The notes beneath the pieces were generated by a model. The model saw only the letters and a program-made list of their open reading frames with translations, did not search any database and had not been told where the DNA came from. Shown here one piece after another: positions 1,478 to 34,610 of a stretch of 56,091 nt of DNA (position 1 is its first letter; every line of letters starts with the position of its first letter). Made by a program: the position numbers and the translations under genes. Source of the stretch: Bacillota bacterium (lineage in GTDB: Bacteria > Bacillota > Dethiobacteria > DTU022 > UBA8154); the NCBI GenBank assembly GCA_012839215.1, contig DUNV01000061.1, positions 1-56,091 of the forward strand, read 5' to 3'.

Positions 1478-1565
1478 TTATTTCGCCCCTTTTCGCCTAG
1501 ACTCGCCAGCCAAGGGTACCCCTTGAGGGGATTTGACAAACCCTGCCTGAGCGGTTGATGACACT
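1478..1565 (-). promoter_or_regulatory. rplU 5' leader, candidate L21-leader-type autoregulatory RNA
   Basis: About 90-nt untranslated leader between the promoter and the rplU ATG. It contains the hairpin CCCCU-CA-AGGGG and flanking complementary GC-rich segments. The call rests on position only; no covariance model was run. Confidence 0.35.
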
Positions 1566-1570
1566 GAAAT

Positions 1571-3326: not shown

Positions 3327-3575
3327 ATGCCTTTGGACGGTACTAAGGAAATGTACGGGACAAACAGCGATTGCTATGCGGATGGGCAATTTACCGCCGA
3401 TTGTTCTATAGAAGAAATGATTGAATTTTGCATCCCCCATATGGTTTCCGCAAATCCGCAGATCGGTGAGGGAAAAGCCCGAAAGATGATGAAAGAACTT
3501 TTCCCACCCTTAAACGCTGGCGGAAGCAGGGGAAACCAAAGCCGGCCGGAGCACAACTGCCCGGTCGGCTTTTGA
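3327..3575 (+). CDS. Putative zinc-ribbon domain protein (Zn_ribbon_2-like), probably degenerate
   Basis: MPLDGTKEMYGTNSD...DGQFTADCSIEEMIEFCIPHMV matches the CQSCGMPL...YG family. The first CxxC (CQSC, 3312-3323) lies in frame upstream of the only ATG. See findings. Confidence 0.5.
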   Translation: MPLDGTKEMYGTNSDCYADGQFTADCSIEEMIEFCIPHMVSANPQIGEGKARKMMKELFPPLNAGGSRGNQSRPEHNCPVGF

Positions 3576-3607: not shown

Positions 3608-4219
3608 CTAGTCGTCAAATGCCTCGCTGACCTTCCATTCCTTCCAAATATTGCCTACGAGATCTGGGCTTGGTTTAAGAGTTTTCTTTCCTGGTTTCCA
3701 TCCTGAAGGGGTTGCCTCAGCCCCTTGCGATTCCCGAACGAGTTGAAAAGCCTTGATTTGGCGAACCGATTCACTGATATTTCTTCCCACCGGGGGGGTG
3801 AGAACCTCGAACCCCTGAATGATGCCGTCCGGATCGATGATAAATCTGCCCCGGGTTTCCACACCCGTGTCTTCATCGTAGATCCCATACATTTTGCCTA
3901 TGCTGCCATCCTGATCAGATAGCATCGGGAAGGGAATATCCTTATTAATCATTTTAGACAGTTCATGCTCATTCCACATTTTATGCACGTAGATGCTATC
4001 GACGCTGATGGTCAGCACTTCCACACCGAGCTTTTGCATTTCTTCATATTTTTCAGCAACTGCTGAAACTTCAGTTGCTCAAACGAAGGTAAAATCACCC
4101 GGATAGAAACAGATAAGTACCCATTTACCAATATATTCGGAAAGACTGACATTCATAAATTTGCCCTGATAATATGCCGATGCGGTAAAATCAGGTGCCG
4201 CCTTGCCGACTTTCACCAT
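3608..4219 (-). CDS. prxU: Selenocysteine-containing peroxiredoxin (AhpC/Prx1 type) with in-frame UGA at 4079-4081 (codon 47)
   Basis: Track ORFs 4079..4354 and 3608..4039 share one frame. Read through, they give [11 protein letters not shown]...[38 protein letters not shown].... A strong SD (AAGAGGAGGGG) sits 8 nt before the ATG at 4217-4219. A hairpin follows the UGA immediately. Confidence 0.85.
4056..4078 (-). promoter_or_regulatory. SECIS-like stem-loop directly 3' of the prxU UGA
   Basis: The mRNA reads UGA-GCAACUG-AAGUUUCAG-CAGUUGC, a 7-bp perfect stem. An alternative upper stem CUGAA/UUCAG puts GU at the apex. Confidence 0.6.
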
Positions 4220-4605
4220 AACATTCCCCTCCTCTTTTAATGGTAGCACGCCCTGGGAAACGGCTTCATCCACCTTTGGCTTTTTGATTTCCGGCCGCTG
4301 GCAACCAGGCCTAAACTCCTCTGCCAATAACTTTGACCTCCTTATCATAATCATTTTTAAGGAATATTGTTTTGCAACTGATTAAGGGTATTATACTATA
4401 CCATCCCAAAAGAAACAACGATTTTATAACAATTTTTGAAGGTAGAGTGACGGAGGTGGCAAGGGGGCGGGGTTGCTGCCACCAATACTGATATCTTTGA
4501 TCTGTTCCCCGTAGATTTCGGAATATGTACTGGTGATAGCACCCTCGTCCCCTTATCATTCTGGGATGAGAAAATTTTCAGGAGGTTTGAATAAGGTCAT
4601 GACAG

Positions 4606-4911
4606 ATGGGGGAATTGCTAGAACAGATAGTTGTAAAAGTTAGTGAAATAGATACAAAAATAGAAAACTTGGATGCAAAGGTTGAAAGCCCGGGCGAAAA
4701 GATTGAAAGCTTGGGCGAAAAGGTTGAAAGCCTTAATGCAAAGGTAGAAAGCTTGGGCGAAAAGGTTGAAAGCCTGGAGCTGGAAGTAAAGGACATCCAA
4801 CTAACACCCGAAAATGAGACGAATAAAAATATTCGTTTGATTGTGGAAGGCCATTTTGGTTTAAACCGCGAAATAGGGTTGGTTGCCAGGGCGGATATAA
4901 ACGGGAATTGA
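4606..4911 (+). CDS. Heptad-repeat (coiled-coil) hypothetical protein
   Basis: 101 aa with KVSEIDT KIENLDA KVESPGE KIESLGE KVESLNA KVESLGE KVESLEL repeats. V/I sits at heptad position a and L at position d. The C-terminal tail has no family I recognise. Confidence 0.55.
   Translation: MGELLEQIVVKVSEIDTKIENLDAKVESPGEKIESLGEKVESLNAKVESLGEKVESLELEVKDIQLTPENETNKNIRLIVEGHFGLNREIGLVARADINGN
4636..4782 (+). repeat. In-frame 21-bp tandem repeat array (5 near-identical units at 4678-4782, preceded by 2 degenerate units)
   Basis: The unit is aaggttgaaagcttgggcgaa, repeated head to tail. The units are contiguous with no spacers, so this is not a CRISPR. Confidence 0.9.
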
Positions 4912-16816: not shown

Positions 16817-17521
16817 TCAGAATGGATAAAGGACCCGGGCAATTTCCAGATCATGCGGGGTGGTCAGCTTGATATTGCTGTAATCACCCGGAACAACTTT
16901 AACAGGCATGCCCATCCTCTCCACAAGAACAGCATCATCGCTGCCCGCAAAACCATCTCCCCGGGCCTTAAGATGGGCCCCCCAAATTATGGAGAAACGA
17001 AAACATTGGGGTGTCTGTGCCAGCAGCAAATGTTCCCGGGGCGGCGTATCCTGCACAAACCCTGCTTCGTCAATCCTTTTGACAGTATCCTTGGGTGCCA
17101 CCCCGACAAGTGCTGCGCCCAGCTCCCCGGCGGCAAGCAGGGCACTTCGGACAAGCGAACCGGAAACCAATGGACGTGCGCCATCATGGATACAGATAAT
17201 CGTCTCGCCCGTGATACCCTTGCCACGAAGAAAAGTAAGTGCATTAAAAACCGAATCCTGCCTTGTCCTGCCGCCCGTAACAGGAAAAAACAGTTCCTTT
17301 ACTTCGCTAAAATACGGTAGTAAAATCAGGTCCCTGAAATATTCTTCCTCCCCGGGGGCAATAACCGGAATAATGCGGGAAAAAAGGCCCAGATCCGTAA
17401 ACACCTCAAGGGTATGGGCGAGTACCGGCCTTTTGCCTAACAAAAGATAGGGCTTATTAGCATCCCCTCCCATGCGTTTTCCCTGCCCCGCCGCGGGTAC
17501 TATCACCACCGGATCGGCCAT
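16817..17521 (-). CDS. ispD: 2-C-methyl-D-erythritol 4-phosphate cytidylyltransferase
   Basis: Contains VVIVPAAGQGKRMG, IHDGARPLV and AQTPQCFRF. Confidence 0.9.
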   Translation of the reverse strand: MADPVVIVPAAGQGKRMGGDANKPYLLLGKRPVLAHTLEVFTDLGLFSRIIPVIAPGEEEYFRDLILLPYFSEVKELFFPVTGGRTRQDSVFNALTFLRGKGITGETIICIHDGARPLVSGSLVRSALLAAGELGAALVGVAPKDTVKRIDEAGFVQDTPPREHLLLAQTPQCFRFSIIWGAHLKARGDGFAGSDDAVLVERMGMPVKVVPGDYSNIKLTTPHDLEIARVLYPF

Positions 17522-33196: not shown

Positions 33197-34528
33197 CTAG
33201 CGGGAAAAAGTTGCTTTGGCAAATTTCTGCAGCCCGGAAGCCTCGCGCGGCCCTACAAGAACATTCCAACCCGATTTTTCCTCAAGCCCCTCCCTGAGAA
33301 CGGCAACCGCCCCCGGAATGACGATCTCCCTGTGTTTTACCTTTTGTTTCAGCCCACTATCCTCTATGGCCCGGGCAATTTTTTCCGCGGTAAATTTATC
33401 GTCGGCATAAGCCGTCAGCACGGACGTGCCCTTTGTGTCCACAACAAGAATAAAGCTGGGGATGCGCGTAGCGCTTATCTCCCCCTCTATCAGGAAATAG
33501 GAAAGAGAAAAGTTTGTCGTGCAGTAGATGGGTGCATCTTCGCCCGCTTCTCCCACCATATACAATCCGGGTTCCACAGTAGCTGGTTTCTGCGGATCGG
33601 CATAGATATTTTCCCGCAGGGTGAGGATAGGCAGGATGTATTCCGGCCTGTCTGTTTTGATCACGACAATATCTGCATATTTTGTTATGCCTGAAACGAT
33701 CTCCAGCATCTCCTCACCCGGATCCTCCTTTGTCGTAAAGGAAATGGTAGGATAAGCAAAGGGACGGTATTTTTTCCGAATGGCAAGACGCCTTAGCTGG
33801 GTTAGATCGGCAAGGGTCTGATTGCCGGCAGACGTGCCGGGATCGAGTACCAATTGGCGAAAACCCGTTCTAACAATTTTGCCGGACAACGCGGCAAGGG
33901 CCTTCAGGCCATTGGCCCTGGCGACCAAGGCGCAGCCGTGGGCCTGAGCCAACTCGATCATCTGCGCATAATTGTCCTCGTTGGCGGCGTGGAGAAGCGG
34001 CTTCCGTACCGCGGACACCTTGAGGGCCGCTTCCATCGCTATGGTATTGCCGGCAATTAAAATCAGGTTTTTGTCTGTCCGGGCGGCCACTTTTTCTGCA
34101 GCAGCCTGAAAAACAGCCACATCTCCGGAGGCATTGCCTAGGGCAATCAAATCTATTTCATAATGCTGGCCAACCCGATCAAAAGAAAGTTTGTTTATTT
34201 TATCTACCTTTGCCTCCACATCCTCATAATCGTTAACAGTAACAGCAATGGCTGTAGGGTGATTGAAGCGTTTCTCATGGCGGAAAAGCTCCGTTTCATC
34301 CCCCACCTCAGTAATATTGTCACCGCTGCCAATCCCCACCAATTGGATAGGGGGCTCCGAGGCGGAAGACAAGGTTTCCCTGGCCTCCGCCGAGATGGTT
34401 GGGCAGGCATCAATGGAGGATTTACCATTGGCAAGAGCCATGGCAAAAGCAAGGCAGGTAGGAAAACCACATTTTTTACAATTTGTTTTAGGCAAAAGTC
34501 TAAAAATGTCAAGTCCTGTCAGGGCCAT
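33197..34528 (-). CDS. acsC: Corrinoid iron-sulfur protein large subunit
   Basis: MALTGLDIFRLLPKTNCKKCGFPTCLAFAMALANGKSSIDAC carries the Cx2Cx4Cx16C 4Fe-4S motif of CFeSP. SD GAAGGGGAGGG. Confidence 0.9.
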   Translation of the reverse strand: MALTGLDIFRLLPKTNCKKCGFPTCLAFAMALANGKSSIDACPTISAEARETLSSASEPPIQLVGIGSGDNITEVGDETELFRHEKRFNHPTAIAVTVNDYEDVEAKVDKINKLSFDRVGQHYEIDLIALGNASGDVAVFQAAAEKVAARTDKNLILIAGNTIAMEAALKVSAVRKPLLHAANEDNYAQMIELAQAHGCALVARANGLKALAALSGKIVRTGFRQLVLDPGTSAGNQTLADLTQLRRLAIRKKYRPFAYPTISFTTKEDPGEEMLEIVSGITKYADIVVIKTDRPEYILPILTLRENIYADPQKPATVEPGLYMVGEAGEDAPIYCTTNFSLSYFLIEGEISATRIPSFILVVDTKGTSVLTAYADDKFTAEKIARAIEDSGLKQKVKHREIVIPGAVAVLREGLEEKSGWNVLVGPREASGLQKFAKATFSR

Positions 34529-34610
34529 TTTTTCCCTCCCCTTCAAATGAATAATAAAGCAAGTTCTCTATTTCGCTACGCCTTATTTTTATTCCTGCCT
34601 GGAGCGCTGT

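Follow-up and report, generated by a model that had tools for sequence, protein, structure and literature searches.

A UGA-interrupted peroxiredoxin gene on a Bacillota contig is probably an intact prxU selenoprotein gene with a covarying SECIS hairpin

A selenocysteine-containing peroxiredoxin, PrxU, was reportedly described from Eubacterium (Peptoclostridium) acidaminophilum by Sohling et al. in 2001, and the characterized protein is presumably a 203-residue short form. In E. coli, the selenocysteine insertion sequence (SECIS) of fdhF has its G and U at positions 23 and 24 and an 11-nucleotide spacer. Reviews list the selenocysteine (Sec)-containing peroxiredoxin family, with its TxxU motif, as an experimentally known prokaryotic selenoprotein (PMC13188914 and PMC9312934, citing Sohling et al. 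2001). For the selenoprotein MsrB1 (Sec95, Cys4), it has been described that the selenenic acid intermediate needs a flexible N-terminal Cys4 and that the selenenylsulfide is then reduced by thioredoxin (PMC1278935). Here we analyze a 56,091-nucleotide contig of an uncultured Bacillota bacterium (DUNV01000061.1, assembly GCA_012839215.1), referred to as the window, in which positions 3608..4327 would form, with a probability that we put at roughly 0.9, one intact prxU gene with the Prx1/AhpC fold and a peroxidatic Sec encoded by UGA 4081..4079. All features of this gene lie on the minus strand, and their coordinates therefore run from high to low. The gene adds one member to the PrxU selenoprotein family, which a curated model already recognizes. 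Its predicted product resembles PrxU of E. acidaminophilum in the UGA-encoded Sec within PxxxTxxU, in the Prx1/AhpC domain followed by 1-cysPrx_C, and in lacking a C-terminal resolving cysteine, but differs from it in belonging to the long form, in which 36 additional N-terminal residues include an invariant cysteine.

A first, sequence-only reading of the window had described a peroxiredoxin with UGA at the peroxidatic cysteine position, split by the open reading frame (ORF) track. This description was borne out by a family score above the curated cut-off, by TGA in all related loci, and by a covarying SECIS, each of which is detailed below. As also stated there, the minus-strand ORFs 4079..4354 and 3608..4039 share one frame and have between them only TGA 4081..4079 and 13 sense codons (4078..4040); read-through of 4219..3608 gives a 203-codon peroxiredoxin in which TGA occupies the codon of the peroxidatic cysteine. 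No further frame disruption was found in prxU, whose protein sequence is strongly conserved both before and after the UGA. For family scoring, Cys was put in place of the stop or U in the query. The read-through product matched the Pfam domain AhpC-TSA (6e-39) as well as Redoxin and the 1-cysPrx_C tail, and the NCBIfam equivalog NF040737 peroxi_PrxU, which has a cut-off of 270 bits, gave 394.4 bits for the 203-residue form and 404.8 bits for the form containing the extension. With TIGR03137 (AhpC), the score was 195.6 and thus below the cut-off of 272, which places the protein outside AhpC and the typical 2-Cys group. Membership in PrxU is indicated by the equivalog score, by the UGA within PxxxTxxU where homologues have Cys, and by the disappearance of the resolving cysteine.

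The best matches among solved structures were 2-Cys peroxiredoxins and AhpC, over the whole length and with E values of 1e-47 to 1e-45. Compared with 5zte (Arabidopsis 2-Cys Prx BAS1) and 1we0 (AhpC), the window protein shows the same fold and active-site loop and an end-to-end alignment, whereas it has Sec instead of the peroxidatic cysteine, Thr instead of the resolving cysteine, and the N-terminal extension. The reading of the resolving-cysteine motif as EATPSGW, made earlier from the letters of the window, was correct, with Thr encoded at 3712..3710. Of the 112 homologues that could be scored, 110 have T (98 sequences) or A (12) in this column, and C was seen only once.

The comparative set was obtained by a scan at one genome per species, which yielded 80 loci encoding relatives with 61 to 81% identity; they represent at least seven bacterial lineages and span Clostridia, Syntrophomonadaceae, Tissierellaceae, Dehalococcoidia, Desulfobacterales, Syntrophaceae, Spirochaetota, Nitrospirota, Caldithrix, and others. 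TGA stands at exactly this codon in all 80 (including L021, which reads FYPGDYTFV followed by the stop), an agreement that far exceeds what chance would give. In five homologues that are more distant, the DNA has TGC or TGT instead. Among the 120 best homologues in the protein database, the Sec column is filled with W in 105 cases, G in 1, and C in 6; W or G appears there because gene callers fell back on genetic code 4 or 25 for TGA. In the window, TGA is the stop of 9 of the 33 long ORFs, and UGA is therefore not globally reassigned in it. The exact N-terminal fragment of the window protein, ending at the TGA, is found on public contigs with 82 residues (five contigs) or 91 residues (four contigs), and the exact 143-residue C-terminal fragment is found on three; the recurrence of identical fragments on several contigs makes it unlikely that the TGA is a one-off read error. 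An exact protein look-up returned no full-length product on the public record. The organism very likely decodes UGA as Sec.

The candidate SECIS was identified in an ungapped RNA alignment (A2) of 75 nucleotides around the UGA, comprising the window and 79 loci. A conserved helix, formed by columns 26 to 32 with columns 37 to 43, has 98.2% of its cells paired, and 50 cells are changed on both sides. Compensatory changes at synonymous sites occur in four of the seven stem pairs, one of which appears as AU in 47 sequences, GC in 27, UA in 4, and GU in 1. The covariation of this helix was reached by none of 500 shuffles, no slid register comes near it, and RNAalifold independently predicts its core. 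The tetraloop is AGUU in 55 sequences, GGUC in 22, GGUU in 2, and AGUG in 1, which corresponds to RGUY in 79 of 80; the loop G and U are invariant, and the bases flanking them mostly covary as A..U or G..C. In the window, the hairpin has a predicted energy of −8.0 kcal/mol, or −8.5 kcal/mol as the fold obtained when the first 9 nucleotides past the UGA are masked. It starts 10 nucleotides past the UGA and places the loop G and U at +22 and +23, counted from the U of the UGA, a position and spacing that fit the review-level definition of a bacterial SECIS (PMC1088965). Like the SECIS elements of E. coli fdhF and Moorella thermoacetica fdhA, it is a hairpin within the coding sequence about 10 to 11 nucleotides past the UGA with a small G-U apical loop; unlike them, it has another stem sequence and no evident bulged U, and it would be a candidate for SelB binding. 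Its G and U lie one position nearer to the UGA than those of fdhF, to which it is otherwise close in placement.

Among the five cysteine homologues, the stem is reduced to 4 to 6 of its 7 pairs or the loop GU is lost (CUUG, AGUA, GGUA, and GAUC) in four, a decay that is expected where the constraint has been lifted, although the sample consists of only five. One of the cysteine forms (L084:1821-1865, TGC) keeps all 7 stem pairs and has the loop GAUC, accompanied by a Val-to-Ile exchange; it has the appearance of a gene that recently changed from Sec to Cys and whose SECIS is in decay. In a Syntrophaceae locus (L058:6241-6315), the exchanges Ala98 to Ser and Ala100 to Gly turn a G-C pair of the SECIS into U-G, so that, as far as the sequence tells, RNA pairing is kept there at the expense of the protein sequence.

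Several observations weigh against this interpretation of the gene and its SECIS. Neither selA, selB, selC, nor selD was found in the window, a 56-kb contig in which ARAGORN detected only a tRNA-Gly and 20 ORFs were compared with NCBIfam; since 56 kb is only part of a genome, this absence says little. No Rfam SECIS model matched, either at the gathering score or at E values up to 10, and only chance snoRNA-like matches were returned; the Rfam SECIS models are family-specific, which makes this null result weak evidence. Finally, in isolation the window RNA favors a nonconserved hairpin at 4078..4056 over the conserved one at 4068..4051 (−10.5 versus −8.0 kcal/mol). It is this hairpin, directly after the UGA, that the sequence-only reading had taken for the SECIS. 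It is indeed present, is overlapped at its 3′ arm by the conserved hairpin, and represents the minimum-free-energy fold of the local window sequence, but with a z-score of −1.23 it is no better than chance (19 of 200 shuffled sequences give an equal or better fold). At its two variable pairs, both of them involving third codon positions, pairing fails in 40 and 37 of the 79 distinct sequences, or about half of the orthologues, whereas four of its eight pairs never vary and all use bases fixed by Ala, Thr, Glu, Ala, and Val codons. Nothing in its 9-nucleotide loop is conserved, it is absent from the RNAalifold prediction, and as it begins at +1, it lies in mRNA that is known to be covered or melted by the decoding ribosome. 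That the SECIS is this hairpin is therefore improbable, and of the earlier claim only its presence stands: it is not conserved, and the SECIS is assigned here to the overlapping hairpin at 4068..4051.

The UGA itself might have other explanations. If prxU were a decaying pseudogene or carried a true nonsense mutation, only fragments or nothing would be made, in agreement with a public annotation that shows two fragments (82 or 91 residues, and 143 residues) and with a window devoid of sel genes. Such a gene would, however, hardly be expected to share the TGA at the same catalytic codon with 80 of 80 loci from several phyla, to have no other disruption and a protein conserved on both sides of the TGA, and to contain a covarying RNA hairpin at the canonical distance from it. 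Close orthologues with stops at varied positions had been named beforehand as the sign of a decaying pseudogene; neither these nor relaxed downstream selection was seen, and we regard decay or nonsense mutation as very unlikely. An error of sequencing or assembly, with TGC or TGT as the true codon, is still less probable. The contig does come from a metagenome-assembled genome (MAG), but window-identical fragments bounded by the TGA occur on several independent public contigs, all 80 relatives have the TGA as well, and the SECIS is intact in the window but decayed in the cysteine forms. Hardly any weight can likewise be given to a genome-wide reassignment of UGA to Trp (code 4) or Gly (code 25), by which the residue would not be Sec. 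The W (105) and G (1) assigned to homologues at the Sec column would suit it, yet the ORFs of the window that end with TGA (9 of 33) are long and family matched, the window genes show no other in-frame TGA, and the host lineages, among them Clostridia and Desulfobacterota, use genetic code 11; moreover, Trp or Gly at the peroxidatic site (PxxxTxxC) would inactivate a peroxiredoxin, as is established.

For the intact selenoprotein gene favored here, translation most likely starts at TTG 4327..4325, which adds 36 residues and results in a 239-residue long-form product with Cys9, Cys73, Sec83, and Thr206. The NF040737 profile has 34 positions upstream of ATG 4219..4217, and the extended form matches positions 3 to 232 of its 233 positions; on five public contigs, independent gene callers chose the same TTG for the 82-residue fragment. 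In a set of 83 sequences, made up of the window together with 78 loci that have TGA and 4 of the Cys type, the start codon is located exactly 8 codons before a conserved cysteine in 80 cases (ATG in 72, GTG in 5, and TTG in 3). The upstream frame is open in all loci with enough sequence and follows the pattern M-[PA]-E-E-[FIL]-K-x-G-C-[QA]-R-P, with deltaproteobacterial-type loci reading GCARPTGGPVGE; after this motif comes a variable stretch of about 20 residues and then K-E-x...M-[IV]-K-V-G-K. The codon of Cys9 is TGT in 42 sequences and TGC in 41, and the neighboring Gly, Arg, and Pro use their synonymous codons about evenly, including all six Arg codons. This saturated synonymous variation around Cys9 argues for selection on the translated peptide and not on DNA or RNA. 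The extension is composed of the invariant GCxRP motif and a variable, probably disordered linker.

Shine-Dalgarno sites were scored as strong if the anti-Shine-Dalgarno pairing was −8 kcal/mol or stronger, with 2,320 coding positions inside the same genes serving as control. Of 80 sequences, 93% showed strong pairing at the long start, and 79 did so at the internal ATG, compared with 6% of the controls; the internal site has a GGAGG core in 68 of 80, and its distance from the ATG is 5 to 11 nucleotides in 77 of 80. Short-only genes exist in some Clostridia (L086 and L087), where AT-rich noncoding DNA lies upstream. ATG 4219..4217 is the ancestral start. The two strong Shine-Dalgarno sites suggest that long-form genes probably yield both a 239-residue and a 203-residue isoform, although the internal site may be a mere relic of the ancestral start. 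The earlier assignment of Sec to codon 47 from a Shine-Dalgarno-supported ATG was right in the count and in the Shine-Dalgarno sequence, but it applies only to the possible short isoform, as Sec is residue 83 of the long form. No discussion of the N-terminal cysteine extension and the double Shine-Dalgarno starts was found in the literature searched.

By analogy with described systems, Sec insertion at this UGA could proceed as follows. When a ribosome stands at the UGA, the mRNA just downstream is unwound, as is established, and the hairpin at 4068..4051 would stay folded, with a 7-bp stem and an RGUY tetraloop exposing G and U. As proposed by comparison with the E. coli fdhF and Moorella SECIS elements, the hairpin would recruit SelB-GTP-Sec-tRNA(Sec), and Sec would then be inserted in place of termination. 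In the finished enzyme, if it behaves like its family, the selenolate would reduce H2O2 or organic hydroperoxides, itself becoming a selenenic acid that is re-reduced by a thiol donor; the NCBIfam name of the family is "thioredoxin-dependent peroxiredoxin."

We tentatively propose that Cys9, placed on a flexible tether, might be the relocated resolving or relay thiol in what may be a two-isoform gene, forming a selenenylsulfide with Sec83 of the same or a neighboring subunit that would be reduced by thioredoxin. This proposal is based on the presence of the cysteine in 83 of 83 sequences, the loss of the C-terminal resolving cysteine, a variable linker with low predicted local distance difference test (pLDDT) values, and the strength of both Shine-Dalgarno sites. 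An AlphaFold2 model of P0115, a natural long homologue of the Cys form, has pLDDT values that exceed 90 for the body of the protein but are about 61 for residues 1 to 20 and about 39 for the linker residues 21 to 30; the low values for residues 1 to 30 fit a flexible tether. The arrangement is similar to that of mammalian MsrB1 in that the window protein has an invariant cysteine on a flexible N terminus and no usual resolving cysteine, whereas fold and enzyme are unrelated and the role of Cys9 in PrxU is hypothetical. As short forms without Cys9 exist, this residue is not essential to PrxU chemistry in general, and it may serve another role, e.g., in partner docking or regulation. A further cysteine, Cys73, is invariant across all Sec and Cys forms, and typical Prx1/AhpC proteins have Phe at that site; in short forms, Cys73 could act as an alternative resolving residue.

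The features of the locus are compiled in Table 1. prxU is a stand-alone, monocistronic gene. The terminator-like hairpin past its stop was missed by a consensus terminator scan, whose loop criterion was shorter. In a comparison of 81 loci, no gene neighbor proved to be conserved; the best cluster occurred in only 8. No minus-strand sigma-70 site passed the criteria of the promoter scan. A match to the PerR/Fur box with 3 mismatches in the 5′ region of prxU (4345..4359, plus strand) was rejected, as the window count of 6 versus 3.7 expected is not above chance, and the enrichment of PerR boxes across the loci was weak (18% versus 8%). A scan of the whole window revealed no other credible pair of same-frame ORFs joined by TGA; a TGA at 16864 was considered as the site of a second split gene and rejected, as the upstream frame there runs into a gene that we take to be ispF from the appearance of its translation.

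Between prxU and the next gene, a putative 101-residue ORF is located on the opposite strand (4606..4911, plus strand). It contains 5.5 copies of a 21-nucleotide (7-residue) tandem repeat of the form KVESLGE... at 4656..4778, resembles a coiled coil, and has no NCBIfam match. An Rfam L21 leader lies at 1489..1566 on the minus strand (45.6 bits). The window holds sporulation and housekeeping genes, and the NCBIfam identities among its 20 ORFs include pepQ-like, sigH, rlmB, thyX, cysS, radA, pyrC, acsC, mcsB, thiI, nifS, and others. The acsC gene, encoding the gamma subunit of acetyl-CoA decarbonylase/synthase (33197..34546, minus strand), indicates the Wood-Ljungdahl pathway in a sporulating (sigH) Bacillota MAG. 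Close relatives of the SigH protein carry the label Dethiobacteria.

Table 1. Positions of prxU and its associated elements in the window
Feature	Position	Strand	Details
prxU, complete gene, long form (probable)	3608..4327	-	239 codons plus TAG stop (3610..3608); most likely start TTG (4327..4325)
Shine-Dalgarno sequence AAGGAGG	4337..4343	-	9 nucleotides upstream of the TTG start; read from the sequence
Motif G8-C9-Q10-R11-P12	4292..4306	-	Cys9 codon TGC (4303..4301); Cys invariant in 83/83
Internal Shine-Dalgarno sequence GAGGAGG	4228..4234	-	8 nucleotides upstream of the internal ATG; kept in 79/80
Internal ATG (Met37)	4217..4219	-	Possible start of a 203-residue short isoform; ATG in 77/80 sequences
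Cys73 (TGT)	4109..4111	-	LICFYPG strand, 10 residues before Sec; column invariant in alignments A1 and A3
UGA, probably read as Sec	4079..4081	-	Peroxidatic residue of PxxxTxxU, numbered 83 in the long form and 47 in the short form; TGA in 80/80 related loci
Window-specific alternative hairpin GCAACUG-AAGUUUCAG-CAGUUGC	4056..4078	-	Hairpin of the sequence-only reading; local minimum-free-energy fold
Conserved hairpin, predicted SECIS	4051..4068	-	Stem UUUCAGC (4068..4062) with GCUGAAA (4057..4051); loop AGUU (4061..4058)
Thr206 (ACC) at the usual resolving-Cys site	3710..3712	-	EVCPxxW replaced by EATPSGW; alignment to 5zte and 1we0
Terminator-like GC-rich hairpin with U-rich tail	3538..3572	-	36 nucleotides past the stop; −22.6 kcal/mol, z-score −2.7

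In the public annotation, an intact gene for an antioxidant selenoenzyme is split into two "AhpC" fragments, and homologues elsewhere are listed with Trp or Gly at the catalytic site, where callers switched to code 4 or 25 on short contigs; both are systematic misannotations of a selenoprotein. The earlier reading needed correction in its choice of SECIS hairpin and of start codon, which also shifts the residue numbering. The case illustrates that the most stable local hairpin past a UGA need not be the SECIS: here, covariation among orthologues picked an overlapping hairpin with a GU loop. What is mildly new for selenoprotein biology is confined to the family-wide N-terminal cysteine extension with two Shine-Dalgarno-driven starts. 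If the Cys9 tether is real, it would amount to a hitherto undescribed resolving mechanism for peroxiredoxins, and the extension together with the double start is a possible lead into the recycling of Sec peroxiredoxins. For the organism, the presence of prxU implies a Sec-decoding trait in this uncultured Bacillota lineage.

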